Position numbers and translations under genes: made by a program. A DNA stretch of 13,255 bases from Candidatus Heimdallarchaeota archaeon (GTDB lineage Archaea; Asgardarchaeota; Heimdallarchaeia; Heimdallarchaeales; Heimdallarchaeaceae). Below, one piece after another: positions 4,178 through 13,255 of the stretch (position 1 is its first letter; each line of letters starts with the position of its first letter). The stretch is taken from positions 1-13,255 of the forward strand of contig JAAFKJ010000150.1 in assembly GCA_021399395.1 (NCBI GenBank), given 5' to 3'. The notes below the pieces were generated by a model. It had not been told where the DNA came from. It did no database searches and was given only the letters and a program-made list of their open reading frames with translations.

Positions 4178-4921
4178 ATGCACTTAGCAGTGGTTTATGT
4201 GATAGTTTTTCTTAGTTCTTATGTTGTTGGATCTATCCCCTTTAGTTGGATTGTGACAAAACTTGTAACCGGTAAGAATTTGAGAGAAGAAGGGTCAGGA
4301 AATGTTGGGGGAAGGAATGTTTATCGAGCAACTCAGTCCAAAAAATGGATGTGGGTAGCAGGTTTATTAGATGTTTCTCGCTCTGTTGTAGCCGTAGCAG
4401 TTCCATTTATTGTTTCAGAAATATTATATTTCCAATATCACCCAGAGTATACTTCGGTACTTGCGAATTTCTTCCCTTTTGATACACACCTTAGTTTTTG
4501 TCTAACTATCGCTGGACTTGGTGCAATTCTAGGACATAATTGGCCACTTTACCTGCTGTCCAGTGGGGGAAAAGGAATCACTGTAGTATTAGCATCAATG
4601 CTTGTAGCAAATCCCATAATAATTGTATTTTGGATTGTTCTTTGGCCAATTGTAATTACAATTGTAGGTTATTCATCTATAGCATACATTGTTGTTACTG
4701 CTCTATGTGGAGTCAGTGCATTATTTTTACCAGAAGCAATGTTGATGCCTTGGGCAAAAAGTAATCTTGCCATCGGGATTCTATTATTGAGTATATCTTT
4801 AATAATGCTGAGCCGACAACGAGATAATTTCCGAAAGATAAAGTCAGGTGAAGCAAAGAAAATGAAAATATGGAAAGCTTTAGGTGGTAAAAAAAAGATG
4901 TCTGAAGAGATATTGAAATGA
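4178..4921 (+). CDS. plsY: PlsY-family (acyl-phosphate:glycerol-3-phosphate acyltransferase-like) integral membrane protein
   Basis: YVVGSIPFS, motif 1 LREEGSGNVGGRNVYR, AILGHNWP, motif 2 GGKG, several hydrophobic helices. Motif 3 is degenerate (RQRDNFRKIKSGEA). Confidence 0.85.
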   Translation: MHLAVVYVIVFLSSYVVGSIPFSWIVTKLVTGKNLREEGSGNVGGRNVYRATQSKKWMWVAGLLDVSRSVVAVAVPFIVSEILYFQYHPEYTSVLANFFPFDTHLSFCLTIAGLGAILGHNWPLYLLSSGGKGITVVLASMLVANPIIIVFWIVLWPIVITIVGYSSIAYIVVTALCGVSALFLPEAMLMPWAKSNLAIGILLLSISLIMLSRQRDNFRKIKSGEAKKMKIWKALGGKKKMSEEILK

Positions 4922-6699: not shown

Positions 6700-7059
6700 T
6701 TATCCTGCTATTCTTATAGATAAAATTCCTCTTTTATCTTTTATAACTGAGACAGCTTCGTTTGGAGCTACAATTGTAAATCCTTTAGATTTGTTACTTC
6801 TTGCAAATAACTTAGCCCATTTGAAGTCATCTCCACCTTCAATTGAGAACAATTTGATGCCAACGAACCTATCATAGTCAATCTTAGTCATTGTTTTTTC
6901 AATTAAGGTCAGTTCTTCTTCATGTGAAAGTCCATCTTCAAGAACAAGTATTGTGTTCCTAACAACTTTTGATAATATATAACTCACTTTTTCTTCAGAA
7001 GATAGATCATTTGTTTCTGAATATGGTATGAAATCTACTCTATACTTCAATTCTGTCAC
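6700..7059 (-). CDS. oapB: OapB/ArvB family protein (DUF2073)
   Basis: LSSEEKVSYILSKV..ILVLEDGLSHEEELTLIEKTMTKIDYDRFVGI and GFTIVAP match DUF2073. The GTG start overlaps the GTPase stop (GTGA). Confidence 0.82.
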   Translation of the reverse strand: MTELKYRVDFIPYSETNDLSSEEKVSYILSKVVRNTILVLEDGLSHEEELTLIEKTMTKIDYDRFVGIKLFSIEGGDDFKWAKLFARSNKSKGFTIVAPNEAVSVIKDKRGILSIRIAG

Positions 7060-7670
7060 CTTACCTTCCTCGCCATCTTGGCGATTGTATCGTAGAGTGT
7101 TTCTATACCATCACCTTGTGTAGCTGATACAGGAACCACTGTATATTCTTGAAAAGCATCTTTAACTACTCTAATATCTGCATCTATCAAATCAATCTTG
7201 TTAGGTACAAGTATGAATGGTTTCTTTTGATGTTCCAAATTTCCAATAATGGTAAAATTGACTTGATCAAAAGGCGATTTAGCTGCATCAATCACTACTA
7301 AAGCAACATCTACATTTTCTAAGAATTTAATTGCTTCCACAATTCCTCTTGTTGCTTCTTTGGCTCTTTGCATTGCTTCTCCTGCAGATAATCCGTGTTT
7401 CATAAATTCTTTTGGATTAACTGAAGAAGCAATTCCTGGCATATCTATCAATGTAAGGTCAAGTTTTGTACCATTTGAAGAAAAGTTCACTTTCTCAAGC
7501 TTTTGAATTGTTCTTGTTTCATGTGGAATCTCACTTACAATTCCCACTTCTTGGTCAGCCCAATCCTTACCCATTTTATTAGCAAGTGTTGTCTTTCCAG
7601 CGTTAACTTCACCATAAAACCCTAAATTTATTGATTTTGGCTTTGTTTTCAGCCATAATCTCCATGACAC
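7056..7670 (-). CDS. oapA: Era-like single-domain small GTPase OapA/ArvA
   Basis: G1 GEVNAGKTTLAN, G2 region SEIPHETR, G3 DMPG, family segment EAMQRAKEATRGIVEAIKFL, G4 NKID, G5 VSA. GGTGA SD at 7680-7676 before GTG. Coupled to DUF2073. Confidence 0.87.
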   Translation of the reverse strand: MSWRLWLKTKPKSINLGFYGEVNAGKTTLANKMGKDWADQEVGIVSEIPHETRTIQKLEKVNFSSNGTKLDLTLIDMPGIASSVNPKEFMKHGLSAGEAMQRAKEATRGIVEAIKFLENVDVALVVIDAAKSPFDQVNFTIIGNLEHQKKPFILVPNKIDLIDADIRVVKDAFQEYTVVPVSATQGDGIETLYDTIAKMARKVR

Positions 7671-9564: not shown

Positions 9565-10710
9565 TCAAAGGCATTTCATTTCTTTTGGAGTGTTAGAAAG
9601 TCTAACAGATCCTTCTTTTGTAACAACACAATCGTCTTCAAGACGAATACCAAATTCATCTGGAAAATACAGACCAGGTTCTACTGTTATAACCGAATTT
9701 TCTAAAAGAGCTCTGCTAGGGTTATCAGGAGTACCTTTTCGTATACCAATACCTATATCGTGGGTTTCTATTCCAATAGGATGACCGGTTGAATGAATAT
9801 AAAATTTCTCAGGATCATATCCATATTCGACAAATTTGTCTCTGACTGCTTGCTCAACCTCTTCTGCTTGAACTCCTGCTCTGATTTTTGAATATGCCGC
9901 TTCTTTTGCCTGATCAACAGCTTCGTAAACATGCAGAACATTTTCAGGAGGATTATTACCTATCCAATATGTGTGTGTGATGTCTGAATTGGATCCTTCG
10001 TAAGCAACTCCATAGTCAATTAGTAGAACTTGTTGTGATTCAATTTTCTTTTGACCTGCTTTGTGGTGGGGTATGGCAGCATGAGCTCCCGAAGCTACAA
10101 TTGCTTCAAAAGCTATACCTCCTCGTCTGTTTGCTTCATACTCAATCAAAGCTGCTATTTCTTTTTCTGTGACACCAGGTTTGATTTGAGGTTCAACAAT
10201 CTCTTCCATCAACTCTTCAGCTAATTGAGCTGAAATTCTATGATTTTCTATCTCTTTTTTTGTTTTAACTGCTCTGATATCGAAAATAAGGTCTTTAGCG
10301 GAGATATAGTTTAATTGAGGATTAATTTTAGTTAATGCTTTATGAGTTCCACTTGTTAGAATATCATAACTGAAATTAGAGAAGACTTCATCTTCTTCTA
10401 CGATATTTATTGCCATTTTAGAAGCTGGTGAAAAACTGTTTAGTAATGTTTTAATTGAATCTTTTAGCTCATCTCCTTTTTTATATGGAACTACTTCATA
10501 GTTTGAATCATCAACCATCATAGCTTCCATACCCGATGTAATTACAGTTGGTTTTCCTGTTTGAGGTATAAGAGTCAGCGTTGGGCTAGAAAACCACCTT
10601 TCTAGTAAATAACGTTGGTGAATATCATAGGAATGGTGACAGAAAACAATCCATCCATCTACCCCATGATTTTTCAGAACACTTTGAATTCTTTTAATTT
10701 TCTCTTTCAA
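9565..10710 (-). CDS. M24B Xaa-Pro peptidase/prolidase family metallopeptidase
   Basis: RAVKT..EI, IVASG...AIPHH, LIDYG, SDIT, HSTGHPIG, THD, TVEPGLY, GIRLEDD. TTG start overlaps the end of cofC by 17 nt. Confidence 0.92.
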   Translation of the reverse strand: MKEKIKRIQSVLKNHGVDGWIVFCHHSYDIHQRYLLERWFSSPTLTLIPQTGKPTVITSGMEAMMVDDSNYEVVPYKKGDELKDSIKTLLNSFSPASKMAINIVEEDEVFSNFSYDILTSGTHKALTKINPQLNYISAKDLIFDIRAVKTKKEIENHRISAQLAEELMEEIVEPQIKPGVTEKEIAALIEYEANRRGGIAFEAIVASGAHAAIPHHKAGQKKIESQQVLLIDYGVAYEGSNSDITHTYWIGNNPPENVLHVYEAVDQAKEAAYSKIRAGVQAEEVEQAVRDKFVEYGYDPEKFYIHSTGHPIGIETHDIGIGIRKGTPDNPSRALLENSVITVEPGLYFPDEFGIRLEDDCVVTKEGSVRLSNTPKEMKCL

Positions 10711-11326
10711 ATTCTACACATTCCTTAAATATTGAATGAAGGTCATTCGGTAATAATTCATTGTTAGCTATTTTGATTAAATCTTTAAATGTGTCTATGT
10801 CTCTGTAAGCTTCATTATATGTCAGTAAGGCTATTCCAATTGAATTATTCTCAAAAAATTCTTTAAATCTAAGCGATGAGTTCTTACCAAATAATCCTGG
10901 GAAGCTGTGTGTCTTACTAAAACAAACTAAACTGGTACCTTTATCCTCTGTAGGAGCTAATACAACATCTGATGTTTTAATATGATTCTCAAGAATATTT
11001 TCTATATGGGTTGAGGTGATTAGTGGTAAATCAGCCATTGTAATAACAATTGTTTCTTCATCAATCTCTCTAAGAGCTGTCAAAATGGAACCGTTTAAAT
11101 CTCCCACTCTGTCTATCAGTATCTCAAAATTCCCATAAAATTCCAATTCTGATTTCTGAGTTAAGACATATACTTTATCAATTCCTTTTACCTTCAAAGC
11201 TTCATATATTACATTTTGTGTTATATTACTTAGAAGTTGTTCTAGAATTGTTAAATTCAAATCGGAACGGAGTCTACTTTTATCTGAAACTGTTCCTCTA
11301 TATGGGATGATTATTGCTTTTGCCAT
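10694..11326 (-). CDS. cofC: 2-phospho-L-lactate/PEP guanylyltransferase (F420 biosynthesis)
   Basis: IIP....KSRL, GDLN, MADLP, VVLAPTEDKGT, FGKNS, DIDTFKDL. Same operon as cofD. Confidence 0.85.
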   Translation of the reverse strand: MAKAIIIPYRGTVSDKSRLRSDLNLTILEQLLSNITQNVIYEALKVKGIDKVYVLTQKSELEFYGNFEILIDRVGDLNGSILTALREIDEETIVITMADLPLITSTHIENILENHIKTSDVVLAPTEDKGTSLVCFSKTHSFPGLFGKNSSLRFKEFFENNSIGIALLTYNEAYRDIDTFKDLIKIANNELLPNDLHSIFKECVEFEREN

Positions 11327-11328
11327 TT

Positions 11329-12102
11329 CTATCCCTTAAAATATTTTGATATTATATTCTCCATAAACGAAGGGTTATTTATGAGTGGTCTAGCTATGGA
11401 AATAGCTTTTGCTCCCTTTGATAAAGTCTGTTGTATGCCCTCTATTGTTCTTATAGAATTATTGGCAATTATGGGAATATCTGTTGCTTGTACAAACTCC
11501 TTAATTAACTCTAGATTAGCTTCGTCTTTTTCCGGAATCATTGCATCAATATGGATATATTCACATCTGGATCTCTCTAAGGTTTTAATTAATACATTTA
11601 CATTTTCAACAACATGTCCTCGGATTTTGATGCCAAATATAATTGAGGGAAAATTGAAGCTAATCTCTTGTAAAAGTTCTTCCAAGCGAGCTAAATCTAA
11701 TAATAAAGTTTGACCACCATCAATAGCTATAATCTCTTTCTGTCTGCAATGGGCATTTATCTCTATGTAATCTACATATTGCTCAAGATTCTTTAGCCAA
11801 GACCTACTCATATTATCAATTTCTACAATTCTTACATTTGCAGCGATTTTTTGTTCCATTCTTATTTTCTTCAATAGGATATTATCTTTGCACCATTTTT
11901 TAATTTCTGGATTCTTCTCTGGAAGTAAAAATTCTTCTCTCCCCTTATCAACTAACAACCGTGTAGCAAATTTATTTTTTTTATCAATTGATAATCCACC
12001 TAAGGTTACCATACCTGCATTGAAATCTAACATCTTTTGGCAGAATTGCGAATTTGCAATTCCTGCCATTGCAGACTGAATTATTGGAGGATAAAACATC
12101 AT
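11329..12102 (-). CDS. MJ0144-like dihydrouridine-synthase-like FMN TIM-barrel oxidoreductase, function unknown
   Basis: SAMAGI, TLGGLSID, GREEF, EINAHCRQ, KIR, HIDAM, IIANNSIR, ISIAR. At 257 aa it has no room for a tRNA-binding helical domain. Confidence 0.85.
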   Translation of the reverse strand: MMFYPPIIQSAMAGIANSQFCQKMLDFNAGMVTLGGLSIDKKNKFATRLLVDKGREEFLLPEKNPEIKKWCKDNILLKKIRMEQKIAANVRIVEIDNMSRSWLKNLEQYVDYIEINAHCRQKEIIAIDGGQTLLLDLARLEELLQEISFNFPSIIFGIKIRGHVVENVNVLIKTLERSRCEYIHIDAMIPEKDEANLELIKEFVQATDIPIIANNSIRTIEGIQQTLSKGAKAISIARPLINNPSFMENIISKYFKG

Positions 12103-13034
12103 AGTGATTTTCCTTTATTAAGTATCATTGTTGCAAGATCTTTAGCAACAGTAGTGTCTTTGAACAATATATTAGCAGTTAAAACAGTTAATCCCGTTTC
12201 TCTTTCAATAGGATTTATCAACTCTTTATCCGATATATCAATGATGAAAGTATCACATACATCCTGATACATTTTCGCTATTTCAACAGGTGAAACTACA
12301 TAACCTTCAGTTTTCATAAGGCGAGCAGTTGGACCACTGATAGGTGAATTTCCTATAATAGGACTAATTGCAATTACTCTTTGTCTGTTTTTGACCAATT
12401 TGCTTTTTATTTGCTTTAAATTGATAATAGGTCCTATACTAGTTATAGGGTTACTGGGGCCAATTATTACATACTGATCATCATCAATACTCTGTAAAGC
12501 CATTTTTGGTGTCTTGGCATCCCTAATATTTTTGATATATACTTTATCTATTTCAATTTCTCCTCTCCCCTTTACCCAAAATTCTTGAAAGTGAATATCA
12601 TCTCCCACACTTGTAATAATTCTAGTTTCGATATGAGTGTCTGAGCTTGGGAATATTCTTGATTTAATTTTTAAATTACTTCTAATTTTCTCAGTAATTT
12701 CTGATAATTTTTTCCCTTTTTTGATTTGATCAGTTCTAAAAATATGCGTGGAAAAGTCCTTATCTCCGATTTTAAACCAAGTTTCATATCCTAAGTTACC
12801 TAAAAATTCTAATGTATGGAAAGTGTCACCTTTGATTCCCCAGAATTTTTCAGTATCCAAGATATTACATAACAAATAGATGATTGTGTCAATGTCAGGC
12901 GAGACGTATAAACCATAAATCCTAATGTCATCAGCAGAATTAGCGATTATAGATATTTGATTATCAGGTATAATGTCCCTAAATCCTTGAATTAGTTTTG
13001 GAGTTCCAGTTCCTCCTGAAAGAAAGGTAATCAT
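12099..13034 (-). CDS. cofD: 2-phospho-L-lactate transferase (LPPG/EPPG:Fo transferase)
   Basis: LSGGTGTPKL, NSADD, VSPDIDT, WGIKGDTF, WFKIGDKD, HFQEFWV, IGPSNPITSIGPI, ISPIIG..PISGP. Confidence 0.95.
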   Translation of the reverse strand: MITFLSGGTGTPKLIQGFRDIIPDNQISIIANSADDIRIYGLYVSPDIDTIIYLLCNILDTEKFWGIKGDTFHTLEFLGNLGYETWFKIGDKDFSTHIFRTDQIKKGKKLSEITEKIRSNLKIKSRIFPSSDTHIETRIITSVGDDIHFQEFWVKGRGEIEIDKVYIKNIRDAKTPKMALQSIDDDQYVIIGPSNPITSIGPIINLKQIKSKLVKNRQRVIAISPIIGNSPISGPTARLMKTEGYVVSPVEIAKMYQDVCDTFIIDISDKELINPIERETGLTVLTANILFKDTTVAKDLATMILNKGKSL

Positions 13035-13082
13035 AATAAAACCTTCAATTTATTTCTGAAAAGGTTAGGGATTATAAAAGAA

Positions 13083-13255
13083 TTAAGCTTTCTTTGTTTT
13101 CTTAGTTGTTGCTTTCTTGGCTGTCTCTTTTGGCTTAGTTGTTGCTTTCTTGGCTGTCTCTTTTGGCTTAGCTTCTGCTTTCTTGGCTGCTTCCTTTGGC
13201 TTAGTTGTTGCTTTCTTGGCTGCTTCCTTTGGCTTAGTTGTTGCTTTCTTGGCTG
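13083..13255 (-). CDS. 3' end of a gene running off the window: Lys/Ala/Thr/Pro-rich, histone-H1-like repeat tail (not in the ORF track)
   Basis: Manual translation of 13253-13083: AKKATTKPKEA AKKATTKPKEA AKKAEAKPKET AKKATTKPKET AKKATTKKTKKA* (TAA at 13085-13083), followed by TTCTTTT. Confidence 0.75.
   Translation of the reverse strand, partial: AKKATTKPKEAAKKATTKPKEAAKKAEAKPKETAKKATTKPKETAKKATTKKTKKA
13101..13255. repeat. 33-bp coding tandem repeat, at least 4.7 copies
   Basis: Unit CTTAGTTGTTGCTTTCTTGGCTG(TCTCT/CTTCC)TTTGG starts at 13101, 13134, 13167 (variant), 13200 and 13233 (cut by the window edge). No spacers between copies. Confidence 0.95.

Follow-up and report, generated by a model that had tools for sequence, protein, structure and literature searches.

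The window analysed here, a stretch of 13,255 nucleotides (nt) from a Heimdallarchaeota archaeon (contig JAAFKJ010000150.1), encodes a protein of the MJ0144 or “archaeal Dus” (dihydrouridine synthase) family, whose gene lies between cofD and cofC, two genes of coenzyme F420 biosynthesis. We consider it likely that this Dus-like protein is a reductase, dependent on flavin mononucleotide (FMN), that turns the enolpyruvyl group derived from phosphoenolpyruvate (PEP) into the lactyl linker of F420. It would be a stand-alone FMN-binding TIM-barrel enzyme of the Dus/dihydroorotate-dehydrogenase kind, acting in F420 biosynthesis rather than on RNA, and, by reducing the C=C bond of the enolpyruvyl group, it would give the L-lactyl link between the deazaflavin FO and the glutamate tail. 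Wherever it occurs, it would fill the role that the C-terminal nitroreductase domain of FbiB has in mycobacteria and also in many of the other Asgard archaea, with an unrelated fold. Our case is built on what can be seen in genomes and models: gene order, co-occurrence, the exclusion of nitroreductases, a predicted fold and conserved catalytic residues. A reading of this DNA from its sequence only had proposed a reductase of F420 biosynthesis, and the comparative part of the evidence (co-occurrence with cofD, linkage to it and the nitroreductase exclusion) supports that proposal, short of proof. The genes concerned are the following:

12099-13034, minus strand: cofD, the first gene of the cofD/Dus-like/cofC trio (311 amino acids, aa; TIGR01819, 324.1 bits against a cut-off of 257.45; PF01933, 156.9 bits).
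11329-12102, minus strand: MJ0144-family (“archaeal Dus”) FMN-type TIM-barrel gene (257 aa; TIGR00736, 168.7 bits; Pfam Dus, 42.9 bits).
10694-11326, minus strand: cofC (210 aa; PF01983, 72.7 bits; TIGR03552, 92.5 bits, which does not reach the cut-off of 105).

The product of cofD is the 2-phospho-L-lactate (or enolpyruvyl) transferase of F420 biosynthesis and that of cofC the guanylyltransferase that activates 2-phospholactate or PEP. Open reading frame (ORF) calls and profile scans place the trio, together with an M24 peptidase gene, in one tight block on the minus strand. The sequence itself confirms the close packing noted earlier: the ATGA at 12099-12102 is common to the cofD stop and the Dus-like start, and the Dus-like stop (TAG) is followed by just two nucleotides (AA) before the ATG of cofC. 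The window's genome is a metagenome-assembled one, 82% complete, and both junctions of the trio are bridged, with no differing letter, by independent metagenome contigs (X3 record 4, covering 11565-12165; X3 record 3, 11101-11585; and X5 record 9, 11072-11378) that come from runs other than the likely source and, in the case of X5 record 9, from a different study. The arrangement is not due to chance, because the same order recurs in 40 of the 41 Asgard genomes that have the family.

To place the family we used phylum samples of 201 Asgard, 151 Halobacteriota and 121 Methanobacteriota genomes, along with 14 named control genomes that provided the coverage of Thermoproteota, Thermoplasmatota and bacteria. 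A profile search finds the Dus-like family in 41 of the Asgard genomes (117-243 bits), distributed over eight taxonomic families (f1, f3, f5, f11, f12, f14, f19 and f22), and cofD in 133; all 41 family-positive genomes have cofD, and the family is absent from each of the 68 without cofD. A 42nd match (G104, 43 bits) was taken for an ordinary Dus and dropped. By their coordinates, 40 of the 41 Asgard members share their strand with cofD and directly follow it, the gap never exceeding 110 nt; the remaining one (G080) is split over contig ends. The Halobacteriota give the same one-way association: the family occurs in 100 genomes and cofD in 148, every family-positive genome has cofD, and the three cofD-negative genomes are without the family. 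Thirty-six of these 100 members are directly downstream of cofD, namely 17 short Halobacteria-type forms and 19 open frames of 314-406 aa, 17 of the latter (368-406 aa) having the size of a fusion to “methanogenesis marker 9” that is described below. Each of the 121 Methanobacteriota genomes carries one copy. Among the controls the family (E<=1e-15) and cofD are found in the same three genomes only (Methanocaldococcus jannaschii, Haloferax volcanii and Methanosarcina acetivorans), and neither was found in Sulfolobus or in the bacteria of this set.

A pattern scan with one genome per species returned at least 558 genomes with a relative, of which the best 80 loci were studied with hidden Markov models made from the window's CofD and CofC. 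Asgard lineages are represented among these best 80 loci, as are Methanobacteria, Methanocellales, Methanosarcina, Methanoperedens, Archaeoglobus and Halobacteria. A cofD gene lies within 6 kb in at least 48 of them (a lower bound, because several loci are cut short upstream) and is upstream and on the same strand in 47 of these 48; cofC is downstream in 23 of the 80. Pfam and NCBIfam scans of representative loci show how the surroundings vary: (cofE-)cofD-Dus-like-cofC in Asgard; cofD-Dus-like in Halobacteria; cofE-cofD-arfA-Dus-like-atwA-marker 9 in Methanobacteriota, the first four genes of which recur in loci L030 and L057 and in six of six further genomes; in Methanosarcina and Methanocellales, a Dus-like::marker 9 fusion with genes for a CitG-like protein, DUF447 and dihydromethanopterin reductase behind it; and pyrF-dapF-Dus-like, followed by a NUDIX or an ARMT1-like gene, in Archaeoglobus. 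Three phyla show the family in physical linkage with cofD. The sequence-only reading had expected the gene to keep company with the cof genes and would have been embarrassed by a family common in genomes that lack them; in both Asgard and Halobacteriota it was seen exclusively where cofD is. As a detail of the collection, contig L023 bears the public label Thermoproteota, which disagrees with its placement here because its genome (G203) gave the same matches as G076 of the Asgard sample.

The strongest single argument for the proposed function is the pattern of displacement beside cofD. The dehydro-F420-0 reductase known so far is FbiB's C-terminal domain, according to the available text of Bashiri 2019. 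Nitroreductases of this FbiB-C-terminal type (TIGR03553) are present in 71 of the 201 Asgard genomes, at 74-176 bits, none of these matches reaching the TIGR03553 cut-off, which is tuned to actinobacterial FbiB; for the nitroreductases that lie beside cofD, the FbiB C-terminal domain is the best NCBIfam family. They belong to the taxonomic families f7, f9, f10, f13, f16 and f18. The nitroreductase gene is directly upstream of cofD in 64 of the 71 genomes and 1.4 kb away in two more, the arrangements being nitroreductase-cofD-cofC, cofE-nitroreductase-cofD, or a CofE::nitroreductase fusion (NF009810, 302.5 bits) followed by cofD. A fusion of the last type was remarked on as an oddity of Lokiarchaeum in the same part of Bashiri 2019. 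Both enzymes occur together in a single genome (G088), in which the nitroreductase is weak (66 bits) and located on a contig other than that of cofD. With this one exception among the 201 genomes, the anti-correlation with FbiB-type nitroreductases, which had been set beforehand as a test, was found. Beside cofD the Asgard F420 operon carries either a nitroreductase or a Dus-like barrel, and essentially never both, as expected of non-orthologous gene displacement.

As regards the protein itself, the best NCBIfam match is TIGR00736, entitled “MJ0144 family RNA dihydrouridine synthase-like”, with 226 of the 231 profile positions (1-226) covered at E = 1.4e-49, and it is ahead by more than 120 bits of the next one, DusB (42.1 bits); five of the 41 Asgard members score above the TIGR00736 cut-off. 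The Pfam Dus match (PF01207, cut-off 20.4) covers positions 74-226 of 311. An AlphaFold2 (AF2) model made from an alignment of 101 relatives (predicted local distance difference test, pLDDT, 96.5; predicted template-modelling score, pTM, 0.93) is a single (beta/alpha)8 barrel, with one closing helix after strand 8 and no further domain. The lengths of the relatives, 238-274 aa if the marker-9 fusions are excepted, are in keeping with the 240-270 aa of a single-domain barrel. The helical tRNA-binding C-terminal domain of Dus was found neither in the Pfam profile coverage nor in the model nor by Foldseek, and the description of a lone barrel made from the sequence therefore stands. The top Foldseek matches are Dus catalytic domains (1vhn, DusB 6ei9, human Dus2, DusC and the Thermus thermophilus Dus), with a query-normalised TM-score (TMq) of 0.64-0.70, a target-normalised one of 0.52-0.59 and 13-19% identity; they are followed by dihydropyrimidine (DPD) and dihydroorotate (DHODH) dehydrogenases, old yellow enzymes (OYE) and FabK, that is, by flavin-dependent C=C reductases. 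The NCBIfam scan gave no TIGR03553 match for the Dus-like protein, and Foldseek assigns its fold to the TIM barrels. A search for longer homologues gave no fusions above 477 aa, which is weak evidence, and the predicted complex of CofD with the Dus-like protein scored 0.01 against a mark of 0.32, which is evidence neither way.

Nineteen residues are invariant in the 101 family sequences: G14, G35, E57, R91, E114, A117, H118, C119, R120, Q121, G130, L140, K159, R161, D186, N214, N215, S235 and R238. When these are placed in the model by secondary structure only, 16 fall in strands 2-8 or in the loops directly after strands 1, 4 and 8, the exceptions (E57, G130 and L140) being in other loops or in a helix. 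The active sites of such barrels are made up of the strands and the loops that follow them. E. coli DusB (6ei9) matches the family profile with E = 6.8e-18, and in this alignment C119 corresponds to the catalytic Cys and K159-x-R161 to the K-x-R motif of Dus, and N214/N215 and S235...R238 pair with the A-N-G and G-R stretches of DusB, which we take to be FMN-binding motifs. All of the motifs picked out earlier are present, as E114-I-N-A-H-C119, K159-I-R161, H184 and A237-R238. The namesake of the family, MJ0144, is presumably the M. jannaschii protein Q57608. A 2022 paper uses Q57608 as the type of “archaeal Dus”, a subfamily that, in the available text of Kasprzak 2012, is set apart by the changes N-x-G-C-P to N-x-H-C-(K/R) and H-x-R to H-x-D. 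The window's protein shows both, as N116-A-H-C-R120 and H184-I-D186, with H118, C119, R120 and D186 invariant. The RNA function contained in the family name is a putative one, drawn from homology, since a 2026 paper calls the family “not well-characterized to date”.

The published state of the F420 pathway leaves room for such an enzyme. In mycobacteria PEP is used and dehydro-F420-0 is made, which is then reduced by the FbiB C-terminal domain; archaeal CofE has one domain, and both a lactate kinase (“CofB”) and a reductase (“CofX”) appear without assigned genes in the available text of Bashiri 2019, which also describes the M. mazei CofD as functional in a PEP-based pathway in E. coli. The corresponding text of Lee 2024 has the M. 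jannaschii CofC and CofD make only dehydro-F420-0 in yeast, and ascribes the reduction in methanogens to a stand-alone nitroreductase “or a yet-unknown enzyme”. At either end of this PEP/2-phospholactate puzzle there is a place for a flavin ene-reductase encoded next to cofD. The earlier statement that no archaeal equivalent had been firmly identified agrees with the literature searched, which still lists the archaeal reductase or the source of 2-phospholactate as open. A function of the Dus-like family in F420 synthesis was not found in that literature, most subscription journals being outside the search.

The chemistry, the substrate and the electron donor are inferred. In Dus enzymes, the hydride comes from reduced FMN and the proton from a Cys. 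By analogy, C3 of the enolpyruvyl group would receive its hydride from reduced FMN and C2 its proton from Cys119, which belongs to the E-I-N-A-H-C-R-Q loop, and R53, R55, R91, R120, K159, R161 and N116 would hold the phosphate and carboxylate. Two substrates are about equally plausible to us, each tentatively. One is dehydro-F420-0, the product of CofD, which is favoured because it is the substrate of the displaced nitroreductase and because the linkage is tightest to cofD and not to cofC. The other is free PEP, whose reduction would give 2-phospho-L-lactate for CofC; it is favoured because the CofC/CofD pairs of M. jannaschii and M. mazei prefer 2-phospholactate, and among the control genomes M. 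jannaschii and M. acetivorans, a congener of M. mazei, carry the family. Reduction of enolpyruvyl-diphospho-5'-guanosine (EPPG), between CofC and CofD, would reconcile both lines; it is the most speculative of the three and an improbable choice. The electron donor is probably NAD(P)H or F420H2 in the Heimdall enzyme and, in methanogens, probably the Cys-rich marker 9 module that is fused or linked to the barrel. Taken further, the whole “archaeal Dus” subfamily might be a PEP reductase (2-phospho-L-lactate synthase) that replaces the lactate kinase “CofB”, with marker 9 as a Cys-rich electron-input module, a generalisation that we offer as possible and nothing firmer.

Several points weigh against a reductase of the F420 linker. 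The relatives in which the exclusion is seen are not independent, and at the level of taxonomic families it comes down to eight with the barrel versus six with the nitroreductase among 20 cofD-positive families (P ~ 0.02 by our own hypergeometric arithmetic). The score of the window's protein against TIGR00736 falls under the curated cut-off of 218.7 bits. The Methanosarcina and Methanocellales loci that were read have no cof genes beside the Dus-like gene, and in Archaeoglobus it sits between dapF and the NUDIX or ARMT1-like genes. Archaeal CofC/CofD pairs prefer 2-phospholactate (Hasan 2022, in its available text) and older work proposed a lactate kinase; if such a kinase exists, no reductase is needed. 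Finally, many genomes make do without the enzyme: 25 of the 133 cofD-positive Asgard genomes have neither the Dus-like family nor the nitroreductase, 48 of the 148 cofD-positive Halobacteriota genomes do not have the Dus-like family, and, among the 16 further genomes that belong to the same genus as the window, five are without the gene.

The Asgard genomes with neither enzyme include all seven of family f2, all three of f6 and both of f8. When five of the 48 Halobacteriota genomes were re-searched with the family profile and TIGR03553, neither enzyme was found, the matches being confined to barrels of 18-24 bits and nitroreductases of 30-42 bits. Three of the five congeners (G193, G097 and G151) were read and have the order Rpb5-cofD-cofC-M24 with cofD and cofC abutting, and all five keep two copies of cofE; cofD, cofC and cofE being retained, the pathway genes therefore persist without the Dus-like gene. 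The window's genome likewise has two cofE copies (G000:C169:12247-12924 and G000:C172:2479-3159, at 251 and 189 bits). Either the enzyme can be dispensed with under certain conditions or there is a third solution, for instance another analogue or the lactate route in its classical form. Since so many F420-pathway genomes have neither enzyme, the Dus-like protein is not the universal archaeal solution.

Two genes were considered in connection with a third solution. In about ten Halobacteriota genomes without the Dus-like gene (e.g. L101:2963-4060 and L100:5584-6688; genomes G492 and G481), the gene directly downstream of cofD is DUF763, which is present in 57 of the 151 Halobacteriota genomes; 16 of these have the Dus-like family and 41 do not. 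It was dropped as an analogue and is read as a lineage marker, because it also occurs in those 16 family-positive genomes and in Sulfolobus. In the Heimdall-order family f2 a conserved ORF of 305 aa, which has no Pfam match, is found directly upstream of cofD (L105:4949-5866 and L106:3025-3945; genomes G015 and G054). To judge from ESM-atlas features and its predicted structure it looks like a divergent metallo-beta-lactamase (MBL)-fold hydrolase, and it may be a lead to the third solution.

With respect to other functions for the family, one is that it acts at another step of deazaflavin or flavin metabolism, either on the way from GTP to 5-amino-6-ribitylaminouracil or FO, or in providing or regenerating reduced flavin or F420 for the pathway. 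The linkage to cofD does not by itself specify a step, and in Methanobacteriota the Dus-like gene lies directly 3' of arfA (GTP cyclohydrolase III); moreover, in one Archaeoglobus locus it is followed, at a distance of a few genes, by RibD_C and by a gene of the MoCF_biosynth/FAD-synthase-middle-domain type (PF00994, PF24102). However, cofD-negative archaea also need riboflavin, yet neither the 68 such Asgard genomes nor Sulfolobus have the family, and the nitroreductase exclusion at the same place in the operon points to enolpyruvyl reduction. We regard another step as improbable.

The reading that the family name invites, an RNA (tRNA or rRNA) dihydrouridine synthase whose place beside cofD is an inherited order without functional meaning, draws on the homology to Dus, which extends to the Pfam score, the DusB match and the top structural matches. 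The catalytic Cys, the Lys of K-x-R and the FMN-binding motifs are all retained, and the literature class is “archaeal Dus” (Kasprzak 2012, available text). Against this, the 257-aa protein has no helical RNA-binding domain, the residues N-x-G-C-P and H-x-R have been changed throughout the family to N-x-H-C-R and H-x-D, and the distribution is confined to cofD-positive genomes (none of the 68 Asgard and three Halobacteriota genomes without cofD); the name, as said above, is a putative assignment from homology. The window's genome also has a separate DusB-like protein (L002:1495-2274, Pfam Dus 155 bits), with which the Dus-like protein shares no more than 26% identity (over 78 aa). The tRNAs of H. 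volcanii are without dihydrouridine (Grosjean 2008, in the portion of that work available), yet this species carries the family, and the literature has dihydrouridine rare or absent in hyperthermophilic archaea, yet M. jannaschii carries the family too. In H. volcanii, the COG0042 gene HVO_2478 adjoins cofD (HVO_2479, by locus tags), and its deletion has been reported as viable and among the three with the worst growth defects in defined medium. Because H. volcanii tRNA has no dihydrouridine to lose, its loss does not explain the defect. A tRNA role for the family is unlikely, and a dihydrouridine synthase of any RNA seems to us quite improbable.

The five congeners without the gene, as well as the many F420-pathway genomes that have neither it nor a nitroreductase, could also be understood if the protein were a small-molecule flavoenzyme with an unrelated substrate, associated with cofD by co-regulation or by an old shared cluster and nothing more. 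It is difficult to reconcile this with a cofD-then-Dus-like order kept in three phyla despite different surroundings, with the strict one-way co-occurrence with cofD or with the mutual exclusion of the known pathway reductase, and we give it little credence. Least of all do we believe that the family primarily serves a methanogen-type cofactor or the maturation of methyl-coenzyme M reductase (MCR), in a methanopterin- or MCR-linked role to which the F420 linkage would be secondary: the barrel is indeed fused to marker 9 in Methanoperedens and Methanosarcina, 19 Methanobacteria loci have marker 9 some 1.7 kb downstream, behind the gene for MCR component A2, and the Methanosarcina/Methanocellales gene is followed by CitG-like, DUF447 and dihydromethanopterin reductase (TIGR02700, 404 bits) genes, but the family occurs in non-methanogens (Heimdall and other Asgard, Halobacteria and Archaeoglobus), cofD is next door in many non-methanogen lineages and no marker 9 was found in the window's genome (82% complete).

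The association with marker 9 is an observation in its own right. In Methanoperedens (L066:5950-7065) and Methanosarcina (L090:5959-7098) the Cys-rich marker 9 (TIGR03277, 166-180 bits) forms the C-terminal part of a fusion with the barrel, and Methanocellales ORFs (L036:5962-7104 and L025) appear, by sequence only, to have the same Cys-rich C-terminal extension. The 19 Methanobacteria loci have marker 9 as a gene of its own, of 158 aa (e.g. L030:8450-8926). This Rosetta-stone link gives marker 9 its first functional partner. CitG-like and DUF447 genes travel with the system in three settings (L090:7085-9567, L036:7083-9204, L103:3323-6341 and L058:7342-8697): behind the fusion and together with dihydromethanopterin reductase, as described above; directly 3' of cofE-cofD in the Halobacteriota genome G508, which has no Dus-like gene; and in Haloterrigena, which has a long CitG-like gene two genes after cofD-Dus-like.

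On either side of the trio, the window has two further genes:

9565-10710, minus strand: M24-family Xaa-Pro peptidase-like gene (PF00557, 182.7 bits), which overlaps the end of cofC by 17 nt.
13082-13255, minus strand: 3' end of the gene upstream of cofD, cut by the window edge, with a Lys-rich tail (read from the sequence).

An M24 gene is also 3' of cofC in loci L018, L029, L109 and L114 and, judged by size, in L111-L113, and several Asgard families have it downstream of cofC, with the Dus-like gene or without it. In Asgard loci it is conserved as a downstream neighbour, with at most a putative role in the pathway. The tail of the upstream gene is coded by 33-nt tandem repeats with a unit of the type A-K-K-A-T-T-K-P-K-E. 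This is probably the tail of an Rpb5/RpoH-like gene, because the gene 5' of cofD in L018, L029, L109 and L111-L113 has the RNA_pol_Rpb5_C domain; in relatives this position is taken by a homologue of Rpb5/RpoH that has a long tail and, N-terminally, a restriction-endonuclease-like domain. Elsewhere in the window, 4178-4921 encodes a PlsY-type glycerol-3-phosphate acyltransferase (PF02660, 111 bits), a bacterial-type ester-lipid gene in an Asgard archaeon, and 6700-7670 the origin-associated protein OapB (PF09846, 78 bits), whose gene overlaps with that of a small GTPase; there may be a replication origin nearby.

The comparative evidence supports the view that the Dus-like protein is a new, putative functional variant within the Dus/DHODH flavoenzymes. 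F420 has a central place in methanogenesis, in the anaerobic oxidation of methane and in the chemistry of antibiotics and xenobiotics, and the origin of its lactyl linker in archaea has been an acknowledged gap since “CofB” was postulated, restated in 2019 (“CofX”) and in 2024 (“a yet-unknown enzyme”). The locus names a concrete and widespread candidate for this step, which is testable with material that already exists, the H. volcanii COG0042 deletion strain (Blaby 2010) and the yeast that accumulates dehydro-F420-0 (Lee 2024). Should the proposal be correct, a long-open step of a major cofactor pathway would be filled and a named family reassigned: the classification of the only “archaeal Dus” family would be corrected, with consequences for inferences about dihydrouridine in archaea and the last universal common ancestor (LUCA), methanogenesis marker 9 would acquire a first functional handle, and heterologous F420 production could be simplified.

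Among known systems, the closest is the “archaeal Dus” subfamily (Kasprzak 2012, equated here with TIGR00736), with which the Dus-like protein shares the N-x-H-C-(K/R) and H-x-D motifs, a length of about 250 aa and the single barrel. Within TIGR00736 the Heimdall branch is a divergent wing (168.7 bits, as against 196-243 bits for other Asgard members), and the evidence given here contradicts the putative RNA function that the family's name asserts. The resemblance to the bacterial and eukaryotic Dus enzymes (DusA/B/C and Dus1-4; among them 6ei9 of E. coli, 1vhn, which is TM0096 of Thermotoga maritima, and human Dus2) is one of fold, the same FMN TIM barrel, and of active site, Cys119, Lys159-x-Arg161, His184 and the phosphate-binding end of the barrel aligning with their Dus counterparts. 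By analogy, the chemistry is likely the same as well, with an FMN hydride and a Cys proton added across a C=C bond conjugated to a carbonyl. In contrast to these enzymes, the Dus-like protein is without the helical RNA-binding domain, is only 13-19% identical to them and has altered residues near the Cys and the His, and the genomic company of its gene is cofD and cofC, with nothing RNA-related.

The FbiB C-terminal domain and the stand-alone nitroreductases (TIGR03553) have the same job as that proposed for the Dus-like protein, the FMN-dependent reduction of the enolpyruvyl group, and they hold an equivalent place beside cofD in Asgard operons, to its mutual exclusion. Like a reductase of this pathway, the Dus-like gene is encoded with the genes for the F420 tail (adjacent to cofD in 40 of 41 Asgard genomes) and its bearers have cofD (all 41 Asgard and all 100 Halobacteriota genomes). 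The nitroreductase is upstream of cofD or fused to cofE, whereas the Dus-like gene is downstream of cofD, and the Dus-like substrate may be PEP or EPPG instead of dehydro-F420-0. Since the folds are unrelated (the alpha+beta fold of nitroreductases versus a TIM barrel), the Dus-like protein is an analogue and not a member of TIGR03553. Class 1 DHODH and DPD, the next-best structural and profile matches, have the same FMN barrel and catalytic Cys, but the sequence matches to them are weak (E 1e-8 to 1e-12, with other family members). A chemical precedent for the proposed reaction is offered by MurB, the UDP-N-acetylenolpyruvylglucosamine reductase, a flavoenzyme that converts an enolpyruvyl ether into a lactyl ether with the hydride going to C3 and the proton to C2; MurB differs in its flavin adenine dinucleotide (FAD) cofactor, its PCMH-type fold and its place in the peptidoglycan pathway.

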